A stretch of DNA of 64,000 nucleotides from a candidate division WOR-3 bacterium (GTDB taxonomy: Bacteria > Hydrothermota > Tepidihabitantia > Tepidihabitantales > Tepidihabitantaceae): positions 310,852-374,851 of the forward strand of contig JBDRTY010000001.1 of assembly GCA_039801085.1 (NCBI GenBank), in the 5' to 3' direction. The notes below the pieces were generated by a model, which saw only the letters and a program-made list of their open reading frames with translations, was not told the DNA's origin and did not search any database. This document shows, piece after piece, positions 3,873 to 64,000 of the stretch (within the stretch, counting starts at the first letter, position 1; each line of letters begins with the position of its first letter). Made by a program: the position numbers and the translations under genes.

Positions 3873-4507
3873 GTCCCGGGCTTTTCGTCCGGGCGGTAAT
3901 GCTCGGTCTGTCTGCCGGCACATCCTGTCTCGGTTTCTGTCTGCCGGTGGTGCTGCCGGTGCTTGCCGGTTCGGACCGGGCCGGTTTTTATCCGGCAGCG
4001 GTCCGGCTGTTATCATTTCTGGCGGGCAGGCTGGTCGCCTATCTCCTTTTCGGTATTCTTGCCGGTCTTGCCGGCGCCCGGCTGAGCGGACCTGTTTTCC
4101 TGCGGACAGCAGCACTGCCGGTTATCTATCTCCTGCTGGGCGGATTGATGATAATTTACGGCATTACCGTCTTTGATCCGTTCACCCGGCTCAGGTTCTG
4201 CCGGCTGATTCAGCCCCAGCTCAATTCGGGCCGGTTTCCTTTTCTCCTCGGGCTGCTGGCAGGGGCAAGTCCCTGTCCGCCGTTTCTGCTCGCACTGGCA
4301 ACTGTTCTTGATTACGCCGGCGTGCTCAGCGGGGCGCTGTTCTTTCTGGTTTTCTTTCTGGCGACCTCGGTCTACTTTCTACCGCTGTTATTTGCCGGTT
4401 TTCTTGTCCGTTGGGATCCGCCCCGGAGCGCTGCCCGCATCGTGGCGGTGGTTACCGGATTTTACTTCGTGGTGCTCGCATTGCGCACACTGTTGAGCGT
4501 ATTTTGA
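3869..4507 (+). CDS. Polytopic membrane protein, DsbD/CcdA-like (thiol-disulfide transporter family) candidate
   Basis: About six hydrophobic helices, with Cys in SCLGFCLP and GASPCPPF motifs. Start overlaps the upstream gene (ATGA). Confidence 0.4.
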   Translation: MSPGLFVRAVMLGLSAGTSCLGFCLPVVLPVLAGSDRAGFYPAAVRLLSFLAGRLVAYLLFGILAGLAGARLSGPVFLRTAALPVIYLLLGGLMIIYGITVFDPFTRLRFCRLIQPQLNSGRFPFLLGLLAGASPCPPFLLALATVLDYAGVLSGALFFLVFFLATSVYFLPLLFAGFLVRWDPPRSAARIVAVVTGFYFVVLALRTLLSVF

Positions 4508-4610
4508 GTCCATTTCTCAGTTGCGTGAATTTATTTGACAAGAGAGAGAGAGAGTATAATTAAAATTAAGACGCAGCCGGATGCCAGCCCCGGCTGTGAA
4601 AGGAGATGCG

Positions 4611-4772
4611 ATGTTTGCAAGCTGGAAGGCGCTGATTGTCGCAACGGCATTCAGCGTGACTGTCATCGGGATTGCGTTTGCTGATGACAATCCCGACTCC
4701 GAAGGGTTGTGGCTATTTACCATGCAAAATGGTATGTGTGCTAACCGATGCTCAGTTTTGTCGCCTATGTAA
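4611..4772 (+). CDS. Small secreted/TM peptide (hypothetical)
   Basis: AAAGGAG lies 6 nt upstream of the ATG. Hydrophobic N-terminus. Sits in the AT-rich segment. Confidence 0.25.
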   Translation: MFASWKALIVATAFSVTVIGIAFADDNPDSEGLWLFTMQNGMCANRCSVLSPM

Positions 4773-5095
4773 GCATCATTACGACCAATGAACCGGCAGC
4801 CCGCTATGCTGCGGGTTATACCGGACCCGGGGGATTGTGCGACTTTCCGCCTTATTACTGGAGATGCAAATTCAGCCGTTTTGGACCGAATGGCAGTTAT
4901 TACATTCCGCGCGATTCCCGGTATCGCTGGCGGTTTTATGCCAAGCGGCAGGACCAGCTTACACAGCGATGGTATTACAGTGACTGGAGCAAAGAGATGG
5001 AATATTCTGAAGTCCGGCTGTTTGATGCTGATACTTTGAATATCTACCGCGACCGGCCGCCCGAGCCCATTCCGCCCTTCAGCTCTGAAGAGTAG
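4748..5095 (+). CDS. Hypothetical W/Y/R-rich small protein
   Basis: 115-aa ORF directly upstream of the 5107 gene. The competing 208-aa minus-strand ORF looks non-coding. Confidence 0.25.
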   Translation: MLSFVAYVSIITTNEPAARYAAGYTGPGGLCDFPPYYWRCKFSRFGPNGSYYIPRDSRYRWRFYAKRQDQLTQRWYYSDWSKEMEYSEVRLFDADTLNIYRDRPPEPIPPFSSEE

Positions 5096-5106: not shown

Positions 5107-6675
5107 ATGCAGAGCAGGAAGTGGTGCGGACTGCTGATTGCAATCGGTTCTGCCGTGCTGCAACCTGCTCTGCATCCGGGTTATTATGTGTTTGCTCAGG
5201 TTTGGGTCCGAACCTATGACGGTCCTGCTAACGGGATGGATAACTGTTATTCCTTAGCTCTCGATTCCTCAGGCTGTCTATTGTTAACCGGTTATGTGAC
5301 ACTAGTTGATCAGGGAGAAACTGTTCCGGCTTACTGCACGATGAAATACACCGGTAGCGGTGAAAGGCAATGGGTGAAGTTTTTCCCCCGCGGGTTCGGA
5401 TTGACGATTACAGCCGATTCTGAGGGTAATGCGATTGTTGCCGGCGACAGTTTCGTGCTCAAATATTCATCTGAAGGAGAACAGTTATGGGTTCGACATT
5501 GCGGTCCGGCTTTCTGGGGTAGTGACGTTGCCGTGGATACACGAAGAAACGTATATGTGACTGGTTATTATCTGGACACAAGGTATGCAATTACAATAAA
5601 ATATGATGCCAATGGTAATGAGGAGTGGATACGGGTTGATTCTGCCGGAAACTGGTTTGTCAGCATGGCGGTTGATTCACTAAATAATGTTTACTGCGGA
5701 GGATACAGTTACGCCGATGGCAGATGGGCATATCGCATTGTAAAATATAAATCCAGTGGCGAGCGGGAATGGGGGATCAGCGAGGAGTTGTTGAACGGAG
5801 TAATAAATAAAGTAAGACTGAGTGACTGCAGTGATTTATATGTAGTCGGCAGTCTGCTGAATGAATCCGGTCCCTATGCAGCAGCCACGGTCAAGTATGA
5901 CAGTAATGGTGTGAGACAATGGGTAAGATTTTTTGAGGGTCCGGGTTATGATGTGGGGCAGACACTGGCGGTTGACCGGAATGGCAACTGTTATGTCGCG
6001 ATTGGGACTGCCGAAAGGCCGGGGATGGTCACCAATTTTGACATTGTGCTGGTGAAATATGCTGCCGATGGTACTGAAATATGGCAGCGGAGATATACTG
6101 GCTATGGGGGAGATGATTATCCGTTTGCGATCGGTGTCGATGCTCAGAAGAATATCTATGTCTGCGGATACAGCGATAGCCGCCGGAGCGACACGGTTCT
6201 GAGGAGCGACTATCTGTTGCTGAAATATGATTCTCTGGGGAATCTGCAGTGGGAGGCTCGTTATTACGAAGGTGAGAACTGGGGATGGGCATATGACCTT
6301 GAGATTGATCCGACTGAAAGTTGTGTATACACTGCCGGCTATGTAACCAAGAAGAAAAATGGCTGTTTTGATTATGACTGGTGCACAATTAAATATCTGG
6401 CTTCCGGACCCGGCATCACCGAAAACGAGCCGGTGGTAAACAGCACTCCGATCATGGTGGTTTCCAATCCAGCCCGTTCTTGCTTCCGGATTCGTTCCCG
6501 ACTCGGACTTTCAAGTCTCGGGTTCTATGATATCACCGGCAGGCTGATTATGAGTTATCCGGTCAGAGGGCAGGTTGATCTGACCTGCTATTTAATCGGG
6601 GTTTGTCCGGGTGTTTATCTGATTAAAGGAGTTACCGCCGAAGGTGTATTGACCAGTAAGCTGATCGTCCGTTAA
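5107..6675 (+). CDS. SBBP (beta-propeller repeat) protein with a T9SS C-terminal sorting domain
   Basis: Repeated ~50-aa units (VYVTGYY...KYD.NG...W) typical of PF06739. C-terminal CTD ends ...GVYLIKGVTAEGVLTSKLIVR. Signal peptide present. Lower GC than the flanking DNA. Confidence 0.6.
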   Translation: MQSRKWCGLLIAIGSAVLQPALHPGYYVFAQVWVRTYDGPANGMDNCYSLALDSSGCLLLTGYVTLVDQGETVPAYCTMKYTGSGERQWVKFFPRGFGLTITADSEGNAIVAGDSFVLKYSSEGEQLWVRHCGPAFWGSDVAVDTRRNVYVTGYYLDTRYAITIKYDANGNEEWIRVDSAGNWFVSMAVDSLNNVYCGGYSYADGRWAYRIVKYKSSGEREWGISEELLNGVINKVRLSDCSDLYVVGSLLNESGPYAAATVKYDSNGVRQWVRFFEGPGYDVGQTLAVDRNGNCYVAIGTAERPGMVTNFDIVLVKYAADGTEIWQRRYTGYGGDDYPFAIGVDAQKNIYVCGYSDSRRSDTVLRSDYLLLKYDSLGNLQWEARYYEGENWGWAYDLEIDPTESCVYTAGYVTKKKNGCFDYDWCTIKYLASGPGITENEPVVNSTPIMVVSNPARSCFRIRSRLGLSSLGFYDITGRLIMSYPVRGQVDLTCYLIGVCPGVYLIKGVTAEGVLTSKLIVR

Positions 6676-6722
6676 TCCAGAATATACCTTGTCAATTATT
6701 TTCCTGCGGGTATAATGAACTT

Positions 6723-29405: not shown

Positions 29406-30080
29406 ATGCGCATGCTGACATTAACTTTAATGGTGTTCAGTCTGGCGGCGGCGGTTAACATTCTGCCCAACCCCTCATTTGAGGTCTGGCTGGATACGCT
29501 GGGCGTGAACATGCCGCTGGGCTGGTTGACCTCAGAGCTTACCCATCCGGGTTCGGCACAGAAGGATACCATCAGTCATTCCGGTTTCTACGCGCTGAAG
29601 CTGACTGGCGGGGATACGGTGGCGTTTGCCACTTCGGTTACGGTTGTCCGGAGTGGACTGAGTTATGAGTTCAGCGGTTATGCCAATGTGCCCGGAATCG
29701 TCAGCGGCGGGTTTGTGCTTCAGTTTCTGACCCTGAGTGGCGGTCTGATCGGTACACCGCAGTTGATCCCGGTCTATTATTCCAGTGGTTACCGGCGCTA
29801 TTCCCGCTGGATCACCGCACCCGATTCGGCATTTTTTCTTACGGTGTCGTGCATCGCTCTGCCCGGCGGTTTGGTTTATTTCGATGATGTTACGGTCGAT
29901 GACACCTCACTTCTCGGCATTAGGCAGCCGGCACCAAACAGACCATCTCGCCTCCGGATAAGCAAGCTGGTGGCACCGGTTCCCTTCGGCAGTGCACCGG
30001 AAGTCCGGCTTTATGATGTCCTGGGCCGCCGGGTTTACGGGCGGAAACGGACCGGAGTCTATTTTCTCATCTCCGAGTGA
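29406..30080 (+). CDS. Small secreted protein with a CBM4/9-like N-terminal region (NILPNPSFE) and a short T9SS-like C-terminus
   Basis: Signal peptide. Ends ...EVRLYDVLGRRVYGRKRTGVYFLISE. Confidence 0.4.
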   Translation: MRMLTLTLMVFSLAAAVNILPNPSFEVWLDTLGVNMPLGWLTSELTHPGSAQKDTISHSGFYALKLTGGDTVAFATSVTVVRSGLSYEFSGYANVPGIVSGGFVLQFLTLSGGLIGTPQLIPVYYSSGYRRYSRWITAPDSAFFLTVSCIALPGGLVYFDDVTVDDTSLLGIRQPAPNRPSRLRISKLVAPVPFGSAPEVRLYDVLGRRVYGRKRTGVYFLISE

Positions 30081-51492: not shown

Positions 51493-54333
51493 TCAGCGCA
51501 CAAGAGCAAATCTGGCGATTGACCGTCCAAATGTGGTTTCCAGCACCGCCAGATAGATTCCGGAGCCGGCAGGTTTCCCGGACTCATTCAACCCGTCCCA
51601 GCAGGCATTAATTCCTTCCAGTTCTTCAGAAGCAAAGTATCGTCCCGGAGTCGGCATTCTGGCGGTGTTGAGCTGAACCGTTTTTACCCTGACACCGCTG
51701 GTAGTGTAGATGGTGATCCGGGCGTCCGGAGTGACCCGGCTGAGATTAAGGGCAAAGTAAACCTTCAGGTTTTCCCCGGTAACAAACGGGTTGGGGTAAA
51801 TGAGTGCGATCCGGTCCTGCGGGCTGGGCTGTGTCCTGGGTGATGGCGGGAATCTGCTGAACGCGGAGTCAACACGGGGCACCCCATAACCGAAGGTGCA
51901 GCTTTTCACTGCCCGGCTGGCGGTTGTGTAAAGCGCCACCCGGATTGATTCCGCATTCCATTCGGGGTGTGCCTCCTTGAGCAGGGCACAGCAGCCGGCG
52001 ATCAGGGCGGTGGCACAGGAGGTACCGACGCTGCCTTCAAGGAAGTTTTCCGAATCCGGTGCCGCAACCGCAACGGTATCTGCCAGCGCTACCAGATCGG
52101 GTTTGATTCTGCCGTCAGCGGTCGGTCCGGTACCGGTTCCGCGCCAGGGGGTAAGGTTCTTCTCAACCCCACCGCAGGTGATGACGCCTTCGGCATCGCC
52201 AGGTGCGGTGATATACGGCCGGGGCCAGGGATATTCGGTTGTGTCACGGTTGCCCATCGCGGTGACGATTACCAGCCCGCGGCGTGCTGCCAGCTCGCAG
52301 GCAATTGAGATCGGTGCGGTTCTGCCGTCAAAATGCTCGTCCCGGTACCAGCCCCGATAGCCGAGCGATGTGGAAACAATATCCGCACCGCACTTTTCCG
52401 CCCACTCCAGCGCCTGAATATAGGTATCCTCCTCCATGTTATATTCATATCCCCGGTTGCCGGAAGTCTTGTAATATTCGGTTTTGGCGACAATCAGGTC
52501 GACTCCGGGTGCGATGCCCATCATGGAATAGGGCTGATAACCGGCGATCAGTGAAGCCATTCTGGTGCCGTGATTGGGCTGGTCATAGGAGAACTTCAGT
52601 GTGTCCGAATCTTCCCAGACCGCGATTTCATCACCCCGGCGGAACCAGAGGATGGAACTGTTGTCCGGGGCAGCCACTGGGGAATAGCAGAAACCGAGCG
52701 TATCAACCGGTTCTGTATCACGCCAGCTCATTCCCAAGTCCGGAGTTGTCCGCTGATAGAGCATACCGCCGGATTCGTAAACAAGGGTCAGACCATTGCT
52801 GGTGTGGCTCAGGGTATAATCCCCGAAGGAGCTGGCGGAGTCAATGGTCAGCGGAGAGGACCAGGTGGCGCCGAAGTCCGTTGAGCGGAGCAGATTCAAT
52901 TTTGTCCGGACCGGGTTGCTTTGATCCTGATAAACAAGGAGGCGCAGAGAATCGTGATTTTTTATGGTAAACAGTCTGATGTGTCCGGCACTGCCGGCAA
53001 TCAGTTCTCCATCGGGATTGAAGCTGACACCGCCATCAGTGGAATAAAACTGCCGGACCCGGCCGGTATTTTTCTCCCGGACAAGGAGGTTGATTCTGCC
53101 CTCAGGTCCGGCGCTGAGCTGGGGCTCGGTGAGCGGCTGGTCATGGGTGATTTCGGTATAGAGCAGCCAGTTTGGGGCAGGAGTGGTAATGAGCGCCTTG
53201 CGAAGGGAGATTACGGAATCGCTTTTCAGCCAGGCGGCATAAAGGGTGTCGGCGTAAATTGCCAAACTTGGATGCCTGCCTGTGCCGAGTGTCTGCCGGT
53301 TCTGCCAGCGGTCATTAATGAAATAACCGAGATAACAGGTGGGCGCAGCACCGGGATGCAGATCAACCTCATTAAACGCCAGATAAAATACCGAATCCCG
53401 GCAGTCCAGCTGCAGATTTTCATAAGTGTAGTAATAAGGCCGGGAAACTGCCACCGGCTGCGGCTGGCTCCAGTTTTCTCCCCGGTCAGCAGAAAATGTG
53501 AAGAAGACCGCCCGTGCGGGCAGACCGTAGGTGTAATTGAAACTGTCAGCAACAAAGGCAAGCAGGGTGAGACTGCCGTTGTCGCCCAGTGCCGGGTCCT
53601 TGACCAGACCAAGGTAGCGCAGTCGGGGTATAACTTCAGCTTCTGCTCCTGCATGCCGGATATAAAAATTGTCACCGGACAGAAAGTCATACTGCCGCCA
53701 GATCCGCAGCCGCCGGACCGCCTGGTTCTTGAGCTTCAGCCCGGTGTCAAAGAGCGCCAGTTTCACACCGGTGCCGAACCATCCCTGATAAAAAAGTTTC
53801 GGCACTCCCAGCATCTGCGCCTGATCCCAGGCAGCACCGTAGAACCGGTGGGCATCAGCGGTGTCAAGGGACCGGTAGTTGCGATGTGATTCCGGCTGGG
53901 TAAGCGGGACGGTCAGGTCAAAGGCGGTTTCAGTTTTCCGGGCAACAGGACGGATATCATAAACATAGGGAAGCTGGTAAATTCTCGATACCAGCTCCGG
54001 TGGCATTTCAAAGCTGGCAGCATTCAGCCAGCGGGACACGGTGCGCAGCCGGGCGCCCAGCGCCTCAATTTCCCGAATGTAATCCTGCCGGACCGGCAGG
54101 TCATCAAAGTCAAAGCCGGCAACCGGTTCCCGTGCCCGGCGCTGGAGCTGGGACAGGGATGCGGTCCGGTAGAGGTCAGCAAGCGCCTGCTGATACTGGG
54201 ACTGATTGAATATTCCCTTGTCCGTGAAAAAAACCCAGACCCGGCTGGGGGAGATTTCCGGCGGTGCGGATTTCACCGGAATGCGCACCAGTTCAACTGT
54301 CGCCGGAAGGAAAAGCAGCAGGAAAAGATGCAT
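51493..54333 (-). CDS. S8 subtilisin-family peptidase with a ~400-aa BNR/sialidase-like beta-propeller insertion inside the catalytic domain, and a T9SS C-terminal domain
   Basis: Asp context GVKLALFDTG near residue 190. His (HGTRMASLIAG) and Ser (GTSCATALIAG) only after residue ~600. BNR motifs STDGGVSF and STDFGATWS lie in between. CTD ...GIYLAVLETTFGRSIARFALVR. Confidence 0.6.
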   Translation of the reverse strand: MHLFLLLFLPATVELVRIPVKSAPPEISPSRVWVFFTDKGIFNQSQYQQALADLYRTASLSQLQRRAREPVAGFDFDDLPVRQDYIREIEALGARLRTVSRWLNAASFEMPPELVSRIYQLPYVYDIRPVARKTETAFDLTVPLTQPESHRNYRSLDTADAHRFYGAAWDQAQMLGVPKLFYQGWFGTGVKLALFDTGLKLKNQAVRRLRIWRQYDFLSGDNFYIRHAGAEAEVIPRLRYLGLVKDPALGDNGSLTLLAFVADSFNYTYGLPARAVFFTFSADRGENWSQPQPVAVSRPYYYTYENLQLDCRDSVFYLAFNEVDLHPGAAPTCYLGYFINDRWQNRQTLGTGRHPSLAIYADTLYAAWLKSDSVISLRKALITTPAPNWLLYTEITHDQPLTEPQLSAGPEGRINLLVREKNTGRVRQFYSTDGGVSFNPDGELIAGSAGHIRLFTIKNHDSLRLLVYQDQSNPVRTKLNLLRSTDFGATWSSPLTIDSASSFGDYTLSHTSNGLTLVYESGGMLYQRTTPDLGMSWRDTEPVDTLGFCYSPVAAPDNSSILWFRRGDEIAVWEDSDTLKFSYDQPNHGTRMASLIAGYQPYSMMGIAPGVDLIVAKTEYYKTSGNRGYEYNMEEDTYIQALEWAEKCGADIVSTSLGYRGWYRDEHFDGRTAPISIACELAARRGLVIVTAMGNRDTTEYPWPRPYITAPGDAEGVITCGGVEKNLTPWRGTGTGPTADGRIKPDLVALADTVAVAAPDSENFLEGSVGTSCATALIAGCCALLKEAHPEWNAESIRVALYTTASRAVKSCTFGYGVPRVDSAFSRFPPSPRTQPSPQDRIALIYPNPFVTGENLKVYFALNLSRVTPDARITIYTTSGVRVKTVQLNTARMPTPGRYFASEELEGINACWDGLNESGKPAGSGIYLAVLETTFGRSIARFALVR

Positions 54334-54341
54334 TAATTATA

Positions 54342-54415
54342 TACCCCGCGCAGGAATTGAACCTGCAACCCACGGATTAAGAATCCGTTGCTCTGCCAGG
54401 TTGAGCTAGCGGGGC
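54342..54415 (-). tRNA. tRNA-Lys (anticodon CTT)
   Basis: Acceptor GCCCCGC/GCGGGGT, anticodon loop TTCTTAA, T-loop TTCAATT. Confidence 0.75.
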
Positions 54416-54435
54416 ACAAATTACCATTTTTCATC

Positions 54436-54509
54436 TGCGCCCGGCGCGACTCGAACGCGCAGCCTACGGGTTCGAAGCCCGGCGCTCTATCCAGTTGAGC
54501 TACGGACGC
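54436..54509 (-). tRNA. tRNA-Arg (anticodon TCG). Identity is less certain because of one anticodon-stem mismatch.
   Basis: Acceptor GCGTCCG/CGGGCGC (one G-U pair), anticodon loop CTTCGAA, T-loop TTCGAGT. Confidence 0.6.
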
Positions 54510-54519
54510 ATGCATTCAG

Positions 54520-54595
54520 GGTGAGTGAGGGGACTCGAACCCCCAACATCCTGAGCCACAGTCAGGTGCTCTAACCGAATTGAGCTACACTCACC
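54520..54595 (-). tRNA. tRNA-His (anticodon GTG) with a genomically encoded G-1
   Basis: Extra 5' G paired to C73. Acceptor GTGAGTG/CACTCAC, anticodon loop CTGTGGC. Confidence 0.75.
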
Positions 54596-54709
54596 GTGCG
54601 ACTCAATTTTTCTTCAGTATAGCAATTTCCCGACCGTTTGTCCACTCTTGCATTGCGGGAATTCGATGGTAATATCTTCGGCGGGAAAATCAAAGAAAGG
54701 AGTAAGTTG

Positions 54710-55711
54710 ATGAGTCAGACCAGGCCAATGAGGAAGATACTGGTGACCGGCGCAGTCGGTCAGATCGGCTCCGAGCTGACGCTGGCGCTCCGTCAGCGCT
54801 ACGGAGCGGAGAATGTGATCGCCACCGGCAGAAAGACCCAGCCGAGCAGGGAGCTCCTGGAGTCCGGGCCATTCTACTTTATCGATGTAGCAAAGCGGGA
54901 GACGATTGAGGAGGTGGTGAGAAAGCACAACATTGACACCATCTTTCACCTGGCGGCGATTCTGTCCGCTGCCGGCGAAAAGAACCCCCAGCTCGCCTGG
55001 GATGTGAATATCAACGGGCTCTACAATGTGCTCGAGGTGGCACGCGAACACAATATGGCGCGGGTGATTGTGCCCAGCTCAATTGCGGTCTTCGGACCTG
55101 AGACCCCGCGCCAGAATACCCCGAACGAGACGATTCTCAAGCCGAGAACAATGTATGGAATCACCAAGGTAGCGGGTGAACTGCTGGGTGATTACTACTT
55201 CCGGCGTTTCGGTCTGGATGTGCGCGGACTGCGCTATCCGGGCATCATCTCCAATGTCACCCTGCCGGGTGGCGGTACCACCGATTATGCAGTTGAGATC
55301 TTCTACGCCGCAATCAAATTCCGGCGCTACAAGTGTTTCCTCCGGGAAGATACCCGGTTGCCGATGATGTACATGCCTGACTGCATCAAGTCAACAATCA
55401 TGCTTGCTGAGGCACCGCTGGAAAAGCTCAAGCACCACTGCGACTTCAATGTCACCGCCATGAGCTTCTCGGCGGGTGAGCTTGCTGCCGAGATCAGAAA
55501 GCACATCCCGGATTTTGAAGTCACCTACGAACCCGATTTCCGTCAGCAGATCGCCGACTCCTGGCCCGAGTCGATTGACGATTCGGCTGCCCGGGAGGAG
55601 TGGGGCTGGAAACCGGATTATGACCTGCCGGCAATGGTTAAGGACATGCTTGAGGTGCTGGGCAGAAGGCATAAGGAGGGGAAACTGGGCTGGCCCCCGG
55701 AAGGGGCATAG
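54710..55711 (+). CDS. NAD-dependent epimerase/dehydratase-family protein, L-threonine 3-dehydrogenase-like (extended SDR)
   Basis: AAGGAG RBS. GAVGQIGSEL Rossmann motif and YGITK catalytic motif. Confidence 0.55.
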   Translation: MSQTRPMRKILVTGAVGQIGSELTLALRQRYGAENVIATGRKTQPSRELLESGPFYFIDVAKRETIEEVVRKHNIDTIFHLAAILSAAGEKNPQLAWDVNINGLYNVLEVAREHNMARVIVPSSIAVFGPETPRQNTPNETILKPRTMYGITKVAGELLGDYYFRRFGLDVRGLRYPGIISNVTLPGGGTTDYAVEIFYAAIKFRRYKCFLREDTRLPMMYMPDCIKSTIMLAEAPLEKLKHHCDFNVTAMSFSAGELAAEIRKHIPDFEVTYEPDFRQQIADSWPESIDDSAAREEWGWKPDYDLPAMVKDMLEVLGRRHKEGKLGWPPEGA

Positions 55712-55720
55712 CTCTGACTG

Positions 55721-56494
55721 ATGGAGGACATCCGCAAACAGCGGCCTGAGGGTTCGATTCCGATTGACAAGGTCGGGGTCAAGAACCTGCGCTATCCGAT
55801 CGTCCTTCTGGACAGGGCGCACAAGCGTCAGCACACGATCGCCACGATCAGCATGTTTGTTGACCTGCCCAAGGAGCAGCGCGGTACCTTCATGGGCAGG
55901 TTTGTTGAGATCCTCAACCGCTATCACCGGGAGATTGATGTCCACAGGCTGGGCACAATTCTCAGGGAGATGCGGGAACGGCTCGGCGCCAACTCCGCCC
56001 ATCTGGAGATGGAGTTTCCCTACTTTGTGGAGAAGTGTGCACCGGTATCCGGGGTCCGTTCCCAGATGGACTACCGGTGCTGGATCAGCGCCAGCCTGAG
56101 CGACCGGTTTATGCTCCGGCTCGGGGTGGCGGTGCCGGTAACGACCCTGTGTCCCTGTTCAAGGGAGATGTCCGGCAGAGGCGGGCACAACCAGCGGGCA
56201 GAGATCCGGGCGGTCGTGGAGTTCAAGGGGTTTGTCTGGATTGAGGACCTGATTGATCTTCTCGAGGAGTGCGGCTCAAGCGAGGTGTATTCACTGCTGG
56301 AGCGGGAGGATGAGAAGCACCTCACCGCTCAGGCGCTGGACAACCCGGCGTTTGTTGAGGATGTGGTGCGCAAGGTGGCACAGCGGCTTGATGCCCATCC
56401 CCAGATCACCGGTTATGAGGTGGAGGTGGAGAGTTTTGAATCCATCCACCACCACGAAGCCTATGCCTATATCAACCGCTTCCGCTCGGGATGA
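55721..56494 (+). CDS. folE2: GTP cyclohydrolase FolE2/MptA (type IB)
   Basis: IPIDKVGVKNLRYPI...TIATISMFVDLP...CPCS motifs characteristic of FolE2 (DUF198). Confidence 0.7.
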   Translation: MEDIRKQRPEGSIPIDKVGVKNLRYPIVLLDRAHKRQHTIATISMFVDLPKEQRGTFMGRFVEILNRYHREIDVHRLGTILREMRERLGANSAHLEMEFPYFVEKCAPVSGVRSQMDYRCWISASLSDRFMLRLGVAVPVTTLCPCSREMSGRGGHNQRAEIRAVVEFKGFVWIEDLIDLLEECGSSEVYSLLEREDEKHLTAQALDNPAFVEDVVRKVAQRLDAHPQITGYEVEVESFESIHHHEAYAYINRFRSG

Positions 56495-57090
56495 AGACCC
56501 TGCTCGTTGACTGCTACCTCAAGGATGCCGAGTCCCGGCTCGTTTATTACCGGCAGATGATTCAGCCCTGGTCCGAGATTTCTGAGATAAAGCTCGCGGA
56601 GCTGAAACCGGGGCTTGACTTTACTCAATACGATGCGGTGGTGCTCACCGGTTCCCAGTGGATGCTTTCGGAAAGGGATGTGCCCGAACCGGTTAAGGCG
56701 GTGCTCCGCCAGCTGCTCCTGCCGGTGCTCGGCATCTGCTTCGGTCACCAGCTCCTTGCCCGCTCCTTCGGTGCGGAGGTCAAAAGCGGGCCGGAATTCA
56801 TCGACCGGATGGAGCGGATCCGGTTTCAGCCCTGGCGCCTGTTTGCCGGGCTGGCGCCGGAGGCGGAGATGCGGGAGAGCCACCGGGAATATGTCACCCC
56901 GGAATCGCTCGAACGGATGGGCTGGGAGATCGGTGCGGTTTCTTCTTCCTGTCCGGTTGAGGCGATAAGGCATCCCCGGCTCCCGCTCTACGGTGTTCAG
57001 TTCCATCCGGAGCGGTCAGAAATAAATGGCGAAATACTGTTCCGCAACTTCTACGAGATCGTCAAATCAGTCCGCACCGGCCAGGGCTGA
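56491..57090 (+). CDS. Class I glutamine amidotransferase-like protein
   Basis: GICFGHQLL (catalytic Cys) and VQFHPE (His/Glu). Start overlaps the folE2 stop. Confidence 0.6.
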   Translation: MKTLLVDCYLKDAESRLVYYRQMIQPWSEISEIKLAELKPGLDFTQYDAVVLTGSQWMLSERDVPEPVKAVLRQLLLPVLGICFGHQLLARSFGAEVKSGPEFIDRMERIRFQPWRLFAGLAPEAEMRESHREYVTPESLERMGWEIGAVSSSCPVEAIRHPRLPLYGVQFHPERSEINGEILFRNFYEIVKSVRTGQG

Positions 57091-57094
57091 CGCA

Positions 57095-57803
57095 GACACA
57101 GCAAAGAGATTTCTCCGCTCCGGTTGAGATGATCCTTTCTGTCATTCCGAGTGGAGCGAAGCGGAATCGAGGAATCCCTTTTTTCTTCTTCCGTCATTCC
57201 GAGCCTGTTGAGGAATCTCCTTCAAGAGATTTCTCGACTCCGCCCTTCGGGCTCCGCTCGAAATGACCGAAAGGGAAGTCATTCCGCGCCTGTCGAGGAA
57301 TCGCTTTTAAGGGATTTCTCCACTGCGGTCGAAATGACGAAAAGGGAAGTCATTCCGGGCTTGTCGAGGAATCTCTTTTAAGCGATTTCTCCACTCCGCC
57401 TCGCTCTGCTCGGCTCCGGTCGAAATGACCGAAAAAAAATGTGCCTGCGGCTTCGCTCCGGTCGAAATGACCCTTACTTGTCATTCCGGGTGGAGCGAAG
57501 TGGAAGCGGTGAATCTCCTTTTTCTCAGACTGAGAGGGATTTCTCGACTGCGCTCGAAATGACCCAAACAGGTTACTGCGGTCGGATAGACCTCTGCGGG
57601 TCGTTCCATGCCTTTCTTTTATTGTCATTCCGAGTGAAGCGAAGCGGAATCGAGGAATCTCTCTTTTCTTCTTCCGTCATTCCGCGCCTGTCGAGGAATC
57701 TTCTTCAAGAGATTTCTCGACTCCGCCCTTCGGGCTCCGCTCGAAATGACCGTTTTATTATTGTGTCATTCCGGGCGAGGCGTCAGCCGAGTCGAGGAAT
57801 CGG
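57095..57803. repeat. Tandem array (about 9 units) of degenerate imperfect-palindromic repeats (gtcattccg...cgaggaatc...gatttctc...cgaaatgac), 40-80 nt each, separated by ~10-nt a/g-rich linkers
   Basis: Unit starts at 57141, 57193, 57278, 57349, 57480, 57624, 57676, 57765. Each unit's two arms are near-reverse-complements (gtcattYcg / cgRaatgac, cgaggaatc / gatttctcg). Confidence 0.7.
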
Positions 57804-57823
57804 TAAATCAGTGCAAAATGCAA

Positions 57824-57864
57824 AATCTGTCAAGCTGTTGACAGATTCAAATGCTGCTTATAAT
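57824..57864 (+). promoter_or_regulatory. Sigma70-like promoter (TTGACA-N15-TATAAT), with a perfect 10-bp inverted repeat AATCTGTCAA-gctg-TTGACAGATT over the -35. Candidate operator.
   Basis: IR arms at 57824..57833 and 57838..57847. -35 at 57838..57843, -10 at 57859..57864. Confidence 0.5.
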
Positions 57865-57884
57865 TACTGTGAGCCGATGAGTTT

Positions 57885-57909
57885 CTACTCTACTCTACTC
57901 TACTCTACT
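57885..57909 (+). repeat. (CTACT)5 pentanucleotide microsatellite in the 5' leader
   Basis: ctactctactctactctactctact lies ~20 nt downstream of the -10. The paralogous locus has 10 copies. Confidence 0.8.
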
Positions 57910-58056
57910 CTACTCCTTATTACTCCAATATCTTAACCCCTCGGGTGAGGTGCGGGCAGGCAGGCGGTGCTGCTGGCGGCAGTCTGCTGCCAGCGGTTGG
58001 AAGTCAGCAGGCAACCTGATAGATTTAAATCATTAAAAGCGGAAAGGAGGTTGAGG

Positions 58057-59658
58057 ATGAAAAAGGCAAGTTTGTTCAGGTTGCTGATTTTAAGCACCGC
58101 AGTGCTCGCGGGGGCGATGTTAGCACAGGAGTGGGAAAGGCTGGAAGATGTGCCGGTTCCGGTTCAGCGCTGGGCATGTCTGACATATTCCTACAGCGAG
58201 TATGGTTCAAGGTCCTATGACACGGTCTGGGGTGTCTTTCCGGCACCTGCCTACGGCAAAACCTGGTTCCTTTATTACGACTGTGTTGACGGCCACTGGC
58301 ATTATCCCGCTGATTCGGTGATCAACCGGGATATGAAACAGACCGCTTTGACCTTTCAATGGCTGGAAGAGGGAGTTGTTTATCTTGTGGGGCAGACATT
58401 GGACGGAGACAACCTCTTCTGGTATCCGTTGAATGAAGGGCGCTGGCATTCAGAGCCGATAACTGCCTTTGCTCTTGGTCCCCGTCCCGGGCTGGCATAT
58501 AAAGCAAATCCCGGCTACAACCAGCAGCTTGAGCCGATACCGGGCTGGCTTTACTGTCTTGCCGGTGGTGGTCAGCAGTTCTGGCGCTACTGGCTGCCGA
58601 GCAGTTATCCGCCGGTGACGGTGGATGGCATCTACCCGGCTCAGGGTGCCCTGATTGCAGATCAGACACCGGTGTTCATCTGGCAGGAGGAAGGGGCAGC
58701 GATTGAATACCGGCTGGTGGTGGCGACCGATCCACAGTTTAGTAACACGGTGATCAATGTCATCACCACGGTGCCGCAGTATTAGGTGGAGACCAGACTG
58801 GCAAATGGCGACTATTACTGGCAGACCGCATCCCGGAGTGCAGGCAGTGGCTGGAAGACCGGACCGGTGCACAGCTTCCGGCTTCAGGGTGGCTGGGAGC
58901 GGCTGGCAGATATCCCGACGCGGGTTGGTGATGGCGGGGCGCTTGCCTACTGCGGGAAGTTCTTCGGCACATCTTCAGACATCTTCATTGCCTTTGTCGG
59001 GGGCGGCGACACCGTCTGCTACGCCTATGTGGACGAGTATAATCGCTGGGTGCGGCTGTATAGTGAAGAGTATGTGCCTCCGCAGAACATCGGCGCAGCT
59101 CTGAGTGCGCATCGGGGGCTTTATATGGACCGAGGGACTCCTTATGCTATTTGGGGGATTGGTGATAACTATTTTCGATTTTATGAGTGGGGGAGATGGA
59201 CTCAAGGAGCTCCAGCGCTCCCAGAAGATATCGGGCCGGGTGCATCTTTAGCTGTGGGGCGGTACCATTTACAACCTTATGGCGCTTATCTTTACTTCAT
59301 TCCCGGGTCCGATCCAAGAAATGGAACACCAAGAGTCTCCTTCTGGCGAAAGCTGGTCTTTGCTTATGACGGGCAGACAAAGGTACAGAAGTCGGGTGGA
59401 ATGGGTGATGAGGGGTTGTATAGCAATCAGATGATTCTGGCTGGTGGTAAAGGGGTGATAGCTTATGTGCTGGACCGACCGGCGAATGTGCGGATAGCGG
59501 TTTTTGATGCTGCGGGCAGAAGGGTTGCTCTGCCATATGCTGGCAGGCAGGATGGAGGTCACCATCTGGTCCGCTGGCATTTCAAGGGTGCCGGAGCGTA
59601 TTTTGTCCTTGTTGACATTGACGATGAAAGGCATAAATTCAAGGTGGTTGTGCGGTAG
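58057..59658 (+). pseudogene. T9SS-secreted surface protein (paralog of 61698..63545) with an in-frame TAG at 58783..58785 inside a conserved Fn3-like segment
   Basis: GAAAGGAGG RBS. Signal peptide MKKASLFRLLILSTAVLAG is identical to the paralog. ORFs 57967..58785 and 58786..59658 share frame 1. CTD ...GAYFVLVDIDDERHKFKVVVR. Confidence 0.55.
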
Positions 59659-59716
59659 AACAAAGGTAAAGGCGGCGGGGCGGAATTGCCCCGCCGCACA
59701 AAGGGGCAGAGGGTTG

Positions 59717-61060
59717 ATGGCTTATTTCCTTTTAATTTTCCTTTGTCCTGCGACTGTCTTCGGACAGGTGGTGGAGCTGGACACAGTATTGACTTTCCCT
59801 CAGCGGATTCTGAATGGTTTTTATGTCTCCGAGTTGAATAAATTATACATTTCCAGCCGTAACAAGATTTATGTGGTTGACTGTTCAACCTGTCAGATGG
59901 GTGAGATTCCGATCAGCTGGGGAGGTGATAATCATTTTGCTTATAATCAGCAGGGCAGGAAATTGTATGTGAAGGACCAGGGATACAGTGACAGTGTGGC
60001 GGTGATTGATGTGCTGGGCGATACGGTTATTAAATGGATTTCAATCAGCGGTATTCAGGCAAGGAACTTGGCTTATGCCAGGAATACTAACCGGCTGTAT
60101 TTCGGTGGTGTGCGGCTTTGTGTAGTGAACTGTGATAATGACAGCATTATCAGGGAGATTGCTCCTCCTCTTTCCGGTTACTATTTCGCGGCGGCGGACT
60201 GGGATGCTGAGCAAATGAAGCTTTATGTGTCATTAGCGAGATGGGGGTATCCGCCGATGATGGCGGTCTATGATACGAGTGAGTCGCTGGTGGCGCTGTT
60301 GCGGGTTCCGATTGTTGAGCCGTTTGCCCTGCAGTTTCATCATCAGCTGGGCAAGGCATATTTTGCCGGCTATGCCATGGATTGTGCGGGTGTGATTGAC
60401 ACGAAAAACGACACCTTTGTTCGCTGGTTTCCGATTCTGGTTGTGTATTCCGGCCTGGTTCCCTATGCGCTGGATACGATTGACGACAAGTTCTACTGTG
60501 CAGCTGCGCGTCAGCATTGGCCCGACACGCTGTATGTGATTGACTGTGTGACCGACTCCATCGTCAAAAAGCTCCTGGAGGCGGGCTGGGGACCTTTGTC
60601 GGTGCGCTGGGCGGCCTGGAGCAACCGGCTGTATTTCACCGGTGGTCCGCGTGGTGAGACGCTGAAGGTCCTGGACTGCCGGACCGATTCGGTGATTGAC
60701 CGGGTGTATCTGGAGGAGTATAGCCTCTTCGGGCCGCCGGACATTGAGCTGGACCCGGTCCGGCACCGCATCTTTGCGATTGGCTGTGACAGCGCGCTGT
60801 ATGTTCTGCGCGAGCTGGAGCAGGGGGTTGAGGAGGAGCGGAGCAACAATCCGGGGCGGTCAGCGCCCACAGTGGTGCGGGGTGTGCTGTATCTGCCGGA
60901 GCGGGCAGGAGCGGCAGGTAAGCCGGTGCTGGTGGACATCACCGGCAGGCGGGTGCGGGAGCTTGTGCCCGGTGCCAATGATGTGCGGGGTCTGGTACCA
61001 GGGGTGTATTTTGTCCGCAGCAATGCCGGCGTGGAACGCAAAGTAGTGATTGCACGGTAG
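59717..61060 (+). CDS. YVTN-family beta-propeller repeat protein with a T9SS C-terminal domain
   Basis: Signal peptide MAYFLLIFLCPATVFGQ. Repeated KLYVS/NRLYF(T)G units. CTD ...GVYFVRSNAGVERKVVIAR. Confidence 0.55.
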   Translation: MAYFLLIFLCPATVFGQVVELDTVLTFPQRILNGFYVSELNKLYISSRNKIYVVDCSTCQMGEIPISWGGDNHFAYNQQGRKLYVKDQGYSDSVAVIDVLGDTVIKWISISGIQARNLAYARNTNRLYFGGVRLCVVNCDNDSIIREIAPPLSGYYFAAADWDAEQMKLYVSLARWGYPPMMAVYDTSESLVALLRVPIVEPFALQFHHQLGKAYFAGYAMDCAGVIDTKNDTFVRWFPILVVYSGLVPYALDTIDDKFYCAAARQHWPDTLYVIDCVTDSIVKKLLEAGWGPLSVRWAAWSNRLYFTGGPRGETLKVLDCRTDSVIDRVYLEEYSLFGPPDIELDPVRHRIFAIGCDSALYVLRELEQGVEEERSNNPGRSAPTVVRGVLYLPERAGAAGKPVLVDITGRRVRELVPGANDVRGLVPGVYFVRSNAGVERKVVIAR

Positions 61061-61423
61061 GAAAGGGATTTCTCCACTGCGCTCGAAATGACATAAACAG
61101 GTTACTGCGGTCGGATAGACCTCTGCGGGTCGTTCCATGGCTTTGCTTTCTTGTCATTCCGAGTGAAGCGAAGCGGAATTGAGGAATCCCTTTTTTCTTC
61201 TTCCGTCATTCCGCGCCTGTCGAGGAATCTCCTTCAAGAGATTTCTCGACTCCGCCCTTCGGGCTCTGCTCGAAATGACCGAAAGAGAAGTCATTCCGCG
61301 CCTGTCGAGGAATCTCTTTTAAGCGATTTCTCCACTCCGCCTCGCTCTGCTCGGCTCCGGTCGAAATGACCGTTTTATTATTGTGTCATTCCGCGCGAGG
61401 CGTCAGCCGAGTCGAGGAATCGG
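61061..61423. repeat. Second, shorter copy of the tandem palindromic-repeat array (4-5 units), homologous to 57525..57803
   Basis: Unit starts at 61153, 61205, 61290, 61385. Also shares the unique ~60-nt segment caaacaggttactgcggtcggatagacctctgcgggtcgttccatg. Confidence 0.7.
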
Positions 61424-61443
61424 TAAATCAGTGCAAATTGCAA

Positions 61444-61485
61444 AATCTGTCAAGCTGTTGACAGAATTCAAATTCTGCTTATAAT
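61444..61485 (+). promoter_or_regulatory. Paralogous promoter/operator: AATCTGTCAA-gctg-TTGACAGAAT, then TTGACA-N16-TATAAT
   Basis: -35 at 61458..61463, -10 at 61480..61485. One-base insertion in the right IR arm and spacer relative to copy 1. Confidence 0.5.
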
Positions 61486-61505
61486 TACTGTGAGCCGATG
61501 AGTTT

Positions 61506-61555
61506 CTACTCTACTCTACTCTACTCTACTCTACTCTACTCTACTCTACTCTACT
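61506..61555 (+). repeat. (CTACT)10 pentanucleotide microsatellite in the 5' leader
   Basis: Ten perfect tandem CTACT copies. The flanks are identical to the (CTACT)5 locus. Confidence 0.8.
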
Positions 61556-61697
61556 CCTTATTACTCCAATATCTTAACCCCTCGGGTGAGGTGCGGGCAG
61601 GCAGGCGGTGCTGCTGGTGGCAATCTGCTGCCAGTGGTTGGAAGTCAGCAGGCAACCTGATAGATTTAAATCATTAAAAGCGGAAAGGAGGTTGAGG

Positions 61698-63545
61698 ATG
61701 AAAAAGGCAAGTTTGTTCAGGTTGCTGATTTTAAGCACCGCAGTGCTCGCGGGTATTGCGTTTGGAAGATGGGAGCCGCTTGATCCGGTTGGCGATGGTG
61801 AAGTGGTTGGTCCTGGCGGCTGTGCGGCACGGGGTAGGGGCTACACCTTCGTTGCAATAGGGGATGGGAGGAGGAAGGTATATGCATTTGATCATGAGGG
61901 TGAAATGTGGGATGAAATAGAAGTACCGATGCCCGAGGCAATTGATTATGCCGGCGCGATGGCATATGAACTTGGATATGGACGTCATTTGTATGTTGTG
62001 ACTGATGAAAGCGGAGGAAAACTTCAGGTGTATCGTTTTTATGAAAATGAAGACTTGGAAGGCGAGTGGTTGCCACCGATTCCATTACCGGAATCAATCG
62101 GTCCTGGTGTGGCACTGGCCTTTGTTCCCTGTGTGAGGGCAGACACAACCCATATTGGTGACCTTTACCTTCTGGTGGGAAAATGCACCCGACATTTTTA
62201 CCGGCGTTCATTTGACTGGATCGCCGAGCTTGATGCCCTCGGTCCGGGCAATGATGCGGAAATAACGGTGCAGGATATCTGTCTTGACTGGCTCCCTGAT
62301 CCCTGGTGGGATTCATACCGGTTACAGGTGTCATCCAATGCAGATTTTACCAGCCTGGTGCTGGATACGGTGATATCGGTTGGTGAATTCAAACCAGCAG
62401 GTGCGGTATTCCCCTCTGCAACCGGCACTTATTACTGGCGGGTCCGGGGTATTAAAGACGGGCATCACTCGGACTGGTCCGAAGCTCAAAGTTTCACTTT
62501 AGCCCAGCAGAATACCTCTCTCAATTACGAGATTATTCCTGCCGATGGGTTGCTGATAAGCGGTGATGAGCTGGTATTTGACTGGCAGCCTCAGAGTGAT
62601 GCGGAATCCTACCGGCTGCAGGTGGCGCTATCCCCGGATTTTTCCGAGCCGGTGATTGATGTTATTACCGATGTGAGTGAATGGGTGGCAGAGCAACCGC
62701 TTGAGACTGGCACATACTACTGGCGGGTGTGCTGCCGGAGAGCAAATGGCTGGGACAGCTGGACTCAACCGATTGAGTTTCAGGTTGAATACGGCTGGCA
62801 GCGACTGCCGGACATTCCATCTGACACCCCGGTTGGAGCCGGTGGTGCGATGTGCTATGTTAAGGCCAGGGATGGTGATACTATGGCACTCTATGTGCTG
62901 GTGGGGAATGGCAGCAGTCAGTTCTGGCGGTTCAATCTCAGTGAGGGTGGAGTCTGGCAGGAGCGGGCTGAAACCCCTTATCCGCAGACCGGCGGCGCAG
63001 CAATTACATCATATCAGAGGTGGCAGCAATCAAGCGACCTGTGGGCGATTTTTGGCGATTTGGTGGAATTCAGGCGTACTTTCAAAATAAATCATAACGG
63101 TTGGGCGAGAATTGATCATCCTCTTCCCCGGGTTTGCGAATACGGTTCATCGATTGTTCGCAACGAGCCTGATTACCATCTTGTTTTAGTCGTTGCCGGT
63201 GAATATCCTGAGGACAGCACCAACTTTTATGCCTGGGTGCCGGATACGGCTAAGGACGGAGAGGAGGGTGCGCAGGCGCGGTCGGCGGGCTTTGGTCCAG
63301 CCGATGTCCGGTTTGGGCGCACCGGCTCTGATCTGTGGCTGAATTACACGCTCTCGGAGCCGGCAGCAGTGGATATCGGTCTGTTTAACCCTGCGGGTCA
63401 GAAGGTGGCAAGTTTATATTCAGGGTGGCAAAGCGCCGGTTGTCATCAGCACCGATACAGACCCGGTTCGCTGATAAAGGGGGTTTGCTTTATCAGGGTT
63501 GACATTGCGGGCAGAAGCACTACTATCAAGCTAACCGCATGGTAG
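61698..63545 (+). CDS. T9SS-secreted surface protein with two Fn3-like modules (intact paralog of 58057..59658)
   Basis: GAAAGGAGG RBS and the same signal peptide. Repeated YRLQVS..DF......TGTYYWRV modules. CTD ...GVCFIRVDIAGRSTTIKLTAW. A GC hairpin follows at 63560..63584. Confidence 0.6.
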   Translation: MKKASLFRLLILSTAVLAGIAFGRWEPLDPVGDGEVVGPGGCAARGRGYTFVAIGDGRRKVYAFDHEGEMWDEIEVPMPEAIDYAGAMAYELGYGRHLYVVTDESGGKLQVYRFYENEDLEGEWLPPIPLPESIGPGVALAFVPCVRADTTHIGDLYLLVGKCTRHFYRRSFDWIAELDALGPGNDAEITVQDICLDWLPDPWWDSYRLQVSSNADFTSLVLDTVISVGEFKPAGAVFPSATGTYYWRVRGIKDGHHSDWSEAQSFTLAQQNTSLNYEIIPADGLLISGDELVFDWQPQSDAESYRLQVALSPDFSEPVIDVITDVSEWVAEQPLETGTYYWRVCCRRANGWDSWTQPIEFQVEYGWQRLPDIPSDTPVGAGGAMCYVKARDGDTMALYVLVGNGSSQFWRFNLSEGGVWQERAETPYPQTGGAAITSYQRWQQSSDLWAIFGDLVEFRRTFKINHNGWARIDHPLPRVCEYGSSIVRNEPDYHLVLVVAGEYPEDSTNFYAWVPDTAKDGEEGAQARSAGFGPADVRFGRTGSDLWLNYTLSEPAAVDIGLFNPAGQKVASLYSGWQSAGCHQHRYRPGSLIKGVCFIRVDIAGRSTTIKLTAW

Positions 63546-63604
63546 CGGAGATAAAACCGGGAGGGGCGGATCCGTCCCCTCCCGACATTCAGGAAGACTG
63601 GGCA

Positions 63605-64000
63605 ATGAGGATTGTATTGTTGCTCTCTTTATTAACCGCTTCAGCAGATGCCGGTCTGGTGCTGGATACGATTCTGCCGGTTCCGGACCCGGTAGAATTT
63701 ATGTATCTGGTTCCGGCCTTCAACAAGCTGTATGCAGGTGGGCGGAGTGCCCGTATCTATGTGTTTAACTGTGAAGATGAGGAGCTTACTGGTATTATTT
63801 CGCCTTCGGGATTTGGCGAGGTTTATCCCTATCCGGCATGGGCAGCGCAACACAACAAGTTATACTTTCCAGTCTCTCACAACCCCATTTCTGATGAGAG
63901 CTGTGCCTTGGCCGTAGTGGATGTTACTACCGACTCCCTTCTAAAGGTGATTGAATTAAATACACGTTATTGGGGTAGCTCTTACTTTCCGATTGCCTGG
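63605..64000 (+). CDS. Secreted beta-propeller-like protein, YVTN-type (5' part; continues past the window end)
   Basis: AGGAAG RBS-like 8 nt upstream. Signal peptide MRIVLLLSLLTASADA. Open frame to the window end with KLYAGG / KLYFPV repeat signatures. No in-frame stop, so it is absent from the ORF track. Confidence 0.45.
   Translation, partial: MRIVLLLSLLTASADAGLVLDTILPVPDPVEFMYLVPAFNKLYAGGRSARIYVFNCEDEELTGIISPSGFGEVYPYPAWAAQHNKLYFPVSHNPISDESCALAVVDVTTDSLLKVIELNTRYWGSSYFPIAW

Follow-up and report, generated by a model that had tools for sequence, protein, structure and literature searches.

In the window, i.e. the whole stretch of 64,000 nucleotides of a candidate division WOR-3 bacterium that was analysed, a perfect (CTACT)n tract precedes each of two paralogous gene cassettes, that of locus 1 consisting of 6 units and that of locus 2 of 10. 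The tract is best explained as a slippage-prone SSR and plausibly acts as a contingency locus of the 5'-UTR type that tunes the output of the cassette, a reading to which we give about an even chance of being right. According to this explanation, slipped-strand mispairing adds or removes 5-nt units, so that unit counts differ among paralogous loci, strains and species. As the promoter match suggests, the tract would be situated early in the transcribed 5' leader, from about +15 on, within a promoter-leader-signal-peptide module that recombines among paralogous two-gene cassettes coding for secreted or surface proteins with T9SS-type C-termini. Tract length would then set cassette output by degrees, not as an on/off switch, and the addition of a pyrimidine-rich stretch that is unstructured and follows a small stem at the 5' end could alter mRNA stability, protein binding or ribosome loading.

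The CTACT tracts, their 5' modules and the cassette genes

The tract of locus 1 extends over 57885..57914 (plus strand) and that of locus 2 over 61506..61555 (plus strand), as established by reading the region, by Tandem Repeats Finder and by an exact regular-expression count. The original prediction had given 10 units for locus 2, which is correct, and 5 for locus 1, which is one too few, its end at 57909 leaving out the last unit. For locus 1, Tandem Repeats Finder delimits the period-5 run as 57884-57915, with 6.4 copies. At both loci, the perfect repeat is long enough for slippage. No other perfect repeats with a unit of at least 4 nt and at least 4 copies were found within the 64-kb window, and by our own estimate the chance expectation of a perfect period-5 run of 30 or 50 nt in 64 kb is far below 1e-6.

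As for position, the tract was expected about 20 nt after the -10 hexamer and about 150 nt before the start codon. The first distance is exact, TATAAT ending at 57864 and 61485 and the tract starting at 57885 and 61506, and the second was measured as 142 nt, with the ATG at 58057 for gene 1 and at 61698 for gene 2. The flanks, described earlier as identical, are so over 31 nt on the 5' side of the tract and 62 nt on its 3' side and differ beyond these limits, the first differences being G/T at 57853/61474 (upstream) and C/T at 57977/61618 (downstream). Further apart, the two loci differ by their promoter spacers (15 vs. 16 nt), by three leader substitutions and by an extra 91-nt repeat unit upstream at locus 2.

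Both tracts belong to a 5' module of about 580 nt that comprises, in this order, short interspersed repeats, TTGACA/TATAAT, 20 nt, the tract, a GC-rich leader of about 140 nt, AGGAGG, the ATG and 19 signal-peptide codons. The locus-1 module (57540..58112, plus strand) is 97-99% identical to its locus-2 counterpart (61065..61753, plus strand), which holds one extra interspersed-repeat unit of 91 nt. The proteins of genes 1 and 2 diverge right past codon 19 and are about 27% identical overall, so the module must be a recent copy between paralogues, made by gene conversion or recombination. The two paralogous leaders of the window are mutually closer than either is to the orthologous leader of L002. 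The boundary of the module transfer falls inside the signal-peptide codons (57540-58112 vs. 61065-61753).

The intergenic space before each module is filled with clusters of interspersed repeats (GTCATTCCG...CGAGGAATC...GATTTCTCSAC...TCGAAATGAC, with units of about 70-90 nt), located at 57049-57800 and 61061-61420, and single copies occur at 29575 and 16198. In related assemblies, short-read contigs end within these repeats, which are possibly REP-like or miniature mobile elements.

The promoter of locus 1 (57838..57864, plus strand) consists of TTGACA at 57838-57843, a 15-nt spacer and TATAAT at 57859-57864; it has 12 of the 12 consensus positions, and its start site is predicted near 57871. 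That of locus 2 (61458..61485, plus strand) likewise has 12/12 positions, with TTGACA and TATAAT at the canonical spacing of 16 nt. Seven other promoters in the window share 11-12 of the 12 consensus positions and all have a 16-nt spacer, the locus-1 spacer being 1 nt below the 16 nt of every other strong promoter in the window and of all the orthologous leaders. We read five of these seven as closely preceding genuine starts, i.e. four GTG starts 7-9 nt further on and one tRNA. The TTGACA-N16-TATAAT promoters at 6689, 13030, 30094 and 33775 precede GTG ORFs whose N-termini we take to be those of a RarA-like protein, a ThrRS-like protein, a lipoprotein and a CoA-activase-like protein. This survey indicates that the organism uses promoters of the sigma-70 type together with many leaderless mRNAs starting with GTG.

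The module promoter is conserved in all the homologous leaders, and a consensus scan for a second promoter 3' of the tract found none. Since the promoter upstream follows the consensus and resembles in type and spacing those used elsewhere in this genome, the tract is most likely transcribed from about +15, corresponding to predicted transcript positions of about +15 to +44 at locus 1. This agrees with the location proposed for it in the transcribed leader, and a location in the promoter or 5' leader is that of a contingency locus. A palindrome over the -35 hexamer of locus 1 (AATCTGTCAA-GCTG-TTGACAGATT, 57825-57848) was also considered as an operator and rejected, as an extra A breaks the locus-2 copy and L002 lacks the palindrome; the left arm of L006 has TTGTCAAT in place of the CTGTCAAG of the window.

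Each module heads a two-gene cassette, made of a gene for a DUF4962-like protein followed by one for a beta-propeller repeat protein. Gene 1 (58057..59658, plus strand) codes for a signal peptide, a DUF4962-like region and a T9SS-like C-terminal domain, and is cut at residue 242 by an in-frame TAG at 58783-58785. Its orthologue in L002 has CAG at this position and is intact, with 535 aa. In view of the nonsense codon and of the 15-nt promoter spacer, locus 1 may be decaying. Gene 1b (59717..61060, plus strand) codes for a beta-propeller repeat protein (TIGR02276, 34.4 bits) that has a signal peptide and whose C-terminus is weakly T9SS-like (TIGR04183, 16 bits, below the cut-off). A perfect 10-bp inverted repeat made of G and C only (GCGGCGGGGC...GCCCCGCCGC) was observed between gene 1 and gene 1b, at 59672-59697, the plus strand being without a T-run. 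Gene 2 (61698..63545, plus strand; 615 aa) is a distant paralogue of gene 1, alike in its first 19 residues, and matches DUF4962 and Ig_Rha78A_N of Pfam. The last gene is 2b, a paralogue of gene 1b that starts at 63605 and runs past the window edge (63605..64000, plus strand); in L001, a third copy of promoter and tract follows 3' of gene 2b.

The assignment of these proteins as T9SS cargo is a tentative one. P0010, a distant orthologue of gene 1 (41% identity), matches TIGR04183, the C-terminal sorting domain of T9SS type A, with 36.3 bits, gene 1 stays just below the cut-off of 23 with its 22.9 bits, and gene 2 has no TIGR04183 match, its C-terminus nevertheless aligning with the C-terminal domain of gene 1. 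Signal peptides are present in the proteins of both gene 1 and gene 2, and several homologues carry precomputed PF18962/PF13860 matches. Exact-protein look-ups of the gene 1 fragments, gene 1b, P0023 and the 59-aa upstream ORF described below returned no record.

In L012, the orthologue of gene 2 (883-2734, GCA_039801045.1) is split into 230 + 405 aa. It lies directly 3' of the GATase gene, i.e. at the position of gene 1 in the window, which indicates that cassette order varies between genomes. With a nonsense codon, a split orthologue and tandem arrays of paralogues sharing a homogenised 5' module, the cassette genes look dispensable and fast-turning. Such a rapid turnover of genes and modules fits fluctuating selection, and weak constraint as well. 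Elsewhere in the window, three tandem tRNA genes were observed on the minus strand (54342-54594), between a subtilase gene and a gene for an NAD-dependent epimerase-like protein.

Tract alleles in related genomes and repeats with other units

Homologous leaders were collected by exact-protein look-ups and by two collection scans, the species representative being WOR-3 bacterium SKW181. In every one of them, the tract is found 20 nt past TATAAT, and its unit count differs in nearly every related genome. The shortest alleles are those of the first leader of L010 (2 units), of its second leader (CTACT CTACT GTACT, i.e. 2 units and a variant one) and of SKW181, which shares its 3 units with an independent JGI contig. 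Five units are present in the locus-1 orthologue of L002, in L011, where two of them are CTACC, and in L012, where three are TTACT. L001, which is locus 2 of GCA_039801065.1, has 6 units vs. 10 at locus 2 of the window, and both L007 and L009 have 7. Far from being identical, unit counts in the related strains compared thus vary from 2 to 10 across 10 leaders. With a variable length and with position and near flanks kept across related genomes, the slippage-prone repeat foreseen by the original prediction is borne out. The amplified variant units (TTACT three times) point to repeated slippage.

Between L001 and positions 61390-64000 of the window, there are 0 mismatches over 2,591 nt, and the single gap is the 20-nt difference in the tract; on a neighbouring contig of GCA_039801065.1, 12 of 6,012 positions differ from the window. 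Together with the allele counts, the comparison with L001 makes the tract the fastest-changing feature of the region, with the caveat that the 6-unit allele of L001 lies 116 nt from a contig end and within the repeated region, so that its length could be that of locus 1, put in by a short-read assembler. Concerning the other end of the scale, alleles with 2-3 units or interrupted tracts precede intact orthologues, showing that the leader exists without a long tract. The 26 nt 3' of the tract are the most diverged part of the leader and resemble decayed units.

A different arrangement is found in L007 (3498-3990; L009 is identical), where the promoter, the 7-unit tract and the first 60 nt or so of the leader are fused to a leader that is AT-rich and belongs to a subtilase-like gene. 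Here, 9 nt separate the -35 and -10 hexamers, with a 7-nt deletion between direct ATTCAG repeats, and the leader is truncated. A perfect tract of 7 units behind such a promoter indicates that long tracts can persist where function is doubtful. The reading frame of the L007 subtilase-like gene apparently changes at a T run near 3983-3989, between its N-terminal part and the main ORF.

Two repeats with other units were found in comparable places. The leader of P0010 holds a perfect (AGAC)9.75 tract (L014 1297-1335, JGI Ga0209102_1000001), located 3' of TTGACA-17-TAAAAT, which resembles a promoter, and some 165 nt ahead of the ATG; AGAC is unrelated to CTACT. A second assembly with an identical protein (L015, 1-31) begins inside this AGAC tract. 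In the window itself, the 14-nt spacer that separates TTGACA (4535-4540) from TATAAT (4555-4560) consists of nothing but (AG)7 (4541-4554), and one added AG unit gives the canonical 16-nt spacer. Downstream of this promoter lie a signal-peptide ORF (4611-4772), an ORF at 4748-5095 and a 522-aa SBBP beta-propeller gene (5107-6675) with a weak T9SS-like C-terminus. From its sequence, the (AG)7 tract looks like a textbook promoter-spacer switch.

In 161.7 kb, i.e. the window plus the fetched loci, all the repeats above threshold are in promoters or leaders and have CTACT, AGAC or AG as their unit. Five of the six repeat sites precede genes for secreted proteins of the cassette kind, and the sixth, that of L007/L009, precedes the subtilase-like gene. 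The AGAC and AG repeats, independent ones in a leader and in a promoter, fit the contingency idea, and together with the confinement of all repeats to promoters or leaders they constitute the strongest argument against mere noise.

Leader folding and competing explanations

A GC-rich hairpin of 13-14 bp (57969..57997, plus strand) was predicted in the leader by single-sequence folding and by the consensus fold of four leaders. Three differences between locus 1 and locus 2 fall within it, two of them changing G-C to G-U and one, at the loop-closing position, breaking only the outermost consensus pair. As no compensatory double change occurs, this hairpin is consistent with the sequences, not proven by them. 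Folding also predicts a long-range stem in which 58011-58026 pairs with 58068-58084 (58011..58084, plus strand), enclosing the AGGAGG at 58045-58050 and the ATG at 58057. For these leader stems, covariation among the 4 sequences is limited to one-sided changes, and z-scores are unremarkable. An Rfam scan of 54000-64000 with E-values up to 1 found no match for the leaders, and elsewhere yielded only tRNAs and weak chance matches.

In a series of folds with 0 to 15 units, unit number left the probability of being unpaired unchanged, the ribosome-binding site having 0.83 and the start codon 0.01. The tract itself is about 70-85% unpaired in the predicted fold, and its pairing is restricted to the 14-nt 5' end and saturates at 4 units. 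The original prediction had proposed that unit number would alter the spacing between transcription start and RNA structure, which gets no backing from folding: the predicted fold is the same from 0 to 15 units and the tract is largely unpaired. Two further pairings were considered and rejected. For a hairpin like that of hmw (see below), between the tract and the G-rich region, about 1.2 or fewer pairs are expected, and no long hairpin is predicted. For an anti-Shine-Dalgarno interaction of CUCCUU, at the 3' edge of the tract, with AAGGAG, pairing is absent from the predicted ensemble and, the tract being upstream of both partners, its length is irrelevant. As modelled, folding offers no mechanism linking 6 vs. 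10 units to expression.

A qualitative difference between 6 and 10 units would follow from one mechanism only, an upstream ORF read through the tract. At locus 1, this hypothetical ORF (57877..57936, plus strand) starts at ATG 57877 and has 19 codons at 6 units; at locus 2 (61498..61677, plus strand), it has 59 codons, ends 20 nt before the main ATG and is annotated by NCBI as hypothetical protein ABIK48_01730. Its start, 8 nt 5' of the tract, is ATG, or GTG in other species, so that every allele has one or the other. Because the unit has 5 nt, unit number modulo 3 determines which stop is reached, the stops lying 108-120 nt (remainder 0), 20-27 nt (remainder 1) or 37-38 nt (remainder 2) before the main ATG, and unit number could thereby act as a three-state translational switch. 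In most leaders, the stop for remainder 1, which includes 10 units, is on a CAU-UAA predicted to pair with the main start codon, and a ribosome terminating there would open the start-codon stem. In favour of such a switch, the three-state pattern is kept in 6 of the 7 leaders compared despite indels, L006 lacking a stop for remainder 2; the main AUG is predicted to be paired with the CAU just 5' of the remainder-1 stop (probability unpaired 0.01); and leaderless GTG starts 7-9 nt past the -10 are numerous, suggesting that unconventional initiation is common in this organism. The upstream ATG, however, is without a ribosome-binding site and lies 13 nt past the -10, too far on to be the first base of the transcript, which makes translation of this ORF doubtful. 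Leader indels are not multiples of 3, chance alone is expected to place stops in all three frames within 180 nt, the AGAC leader is likewise three-state, and the observed alleles show no preference for a remainder (4, 2 and 4 alleles for remainders 0, 1 and 2, respectively). A protein search with the 59-aa ORF, for other tract lengths called as genes, had as its sole match ABIK48_01730, the window's own annotation. On balance, a frame-dependent switch appears improbable. We are just as doubtful of the wider proposition, in which only remainder 1 would open the ribosome-binding site by coupling and, with the AGAC and AG tracts, a free-living WOR-3 bacterium would run a repeat-controlled set of T9SS cargo by a mechanism undescribed for phase variation.

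A more serious rival to the tuning of cassette output by tract length is that the tract is a neutral microsatellite, slipping fast without any effect on expression, carried along by a module that spreads through gene conversion and having lengths that are mutational noise. The folds, in which no leader structure depends on unit number, are consistent with this, and so are the orthologous leaders with just 2-3 units or interrupted tracts and the 7 units of L007/L009, where the promoter is apparently broken and the leader truncated. The diverged 26 nt 3' of the tract, resembling decayed units, would fit a cycle of repeat birth and death. Neutrality, on the other hand, accounts poorly for the recurrence of long perfect tracts across loci and species (5, 6, 6, 7 and 10 units) and for an unrelated AGAC tract in the leader of a distant orthologue, and the confinement of all repeats in 161.7 kb to promoters or leaders, five of the six sites being before secreted-protein genes, is unexpected for neutral repeats. 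We consider a neutral tract a real possibility, if clearly a less probable one than the 5'-UTR-type contingency locus.

Mis-assembly in a repeated region of about 600 nt, the real loci having one fixed length, would explain why L001 begins 116 nt 5' of the tract and breaks off within a third tract copy, the assembly having broken at this repeat, and why L015 starts inside the AGAC tract. At 30-50 nt, the tracts are nevertheless below typical read size, and one contig of 934,845 nt spans both loci of the window. Moreover, internal and well-flanked alleles (L002, L006, L008, the second leader of L010, L012, L007 and L009) vary in number and in unit sequence, while the 3-unit and the 7-unit alleles are each agreed upon by two assemblies, independent ones in the case of the 3 units. 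An artefact is therefore very unlikely to account for the differences. Equally slight are the chances of an array of protein-binding sites at the DNA level, in which 5-bp units with a 10-bp direct-repeat periodicity would place a regulator as a roadblock and unit number would be the number of sites. What speaks for it is the position, from +15 onwards, and the periodicity, whereas no candidate regulator is known, 2-unit alleles exist, the variants TTACT, CTACC and GTACT are tolerated and the palindrome over the locus-1 -35 is not conserved.

Known repeat-based systems and significance

Judged from its sequence, the tract is best filed as a putative further member of the known repeat-based contingency loci, closest to hmw1A and uspA2, in a new lineage. 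In H. influenzae, hmw1A/hmw2A have (ATCTTTC)n in the 5'-UTR, where the repeats and a G-rich arm form a long hairpin that is cut by RNase III (PMC12721329, PMC8262952). Both systems have a pyrimidine-rich repeat upstream of a gene for a surface protein (of adhesin type in hmw, a putative one here), placed in the 5'-UTR (here by promoter match), paralogous loci with a common upstream region, a unit number varying between strains with a graded effect (here an expected one) and a G-rich stretch 3' of the tract. They differ in that no long hairpin is predicted for the WOR-3 tract, in unit size (5 vs. 7 nt) and in unit number (2-10 vs. at least 11), and the WOR-3 bacterium is free-living and uncultivated. 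The AGAT(n) repeat of M. catarrhalis uspA2 is situated 132 bp upstream of the ORF, and its measured effect on mRNA is graded and modest (PMC7302503). A short unit, a similar distance (142 nt here), the ORF of a surface protein (a predicted one here) and a strain-variable count are common to both, while unit and lineage differ and it is for uspA2 that an effect on mRNA has been measured.

The Neisseria opa genes have CTCTT repeats inside the signal-peptide coding sequence and are turned on or off by frameshift (PMC13183285). They share with the present loci a pyrimidine-rich 5-nt unit, multi-copy recombining paralogues with conserved 5' ends and a non-triplet unit that shifts the frame. Unlike in opa, the WOR-3 tract ends 142 nt before the main ATG, outside the main ORF, and could shift the frame of the hypothetical upstream ORF only. 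In the promoter-spacer repeat of N. meningitidis porA, a poly-G, slippage alters promoter geometry (PMC3639595). The (AG)7 at 4541-4554 resembles the porA spacer, whereas the CTACT tract lies 3' of the -10 and not between the hexamers. The original prediction had held that this mode of variation is known in other bacteria and undescribed for T9SS cargo in this kind of lineage, and it stands in so far as the library searched yielded no paper linking WOR-3 with T9SS or with phase variation; T9SS went unmentioned among the ten best-ranked of 255 two-term matches of a literature search on T9SS and repeat-based switching.

In practical terms, short-read assemblies break at the tracts and at the 5' module common to the loci. 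Contingency loci driven by repeats have mostly been described in host-adapted pathogens with small genomes (PMC11475388). If the present interpretation is true, the contingency strategy would extend to an uncultivated environmental WOR-3 lineage, where it would act on T9SS-type secreted proteins encoded in tandem arrays, the differing repeat units of orthologous leaders would be of independent origin, and a simple sequence signature would be available for finding such genes in metagenomes. It would also point to fluctuating selection on surface or secreted proteins, exerted for example by phage or grazers.
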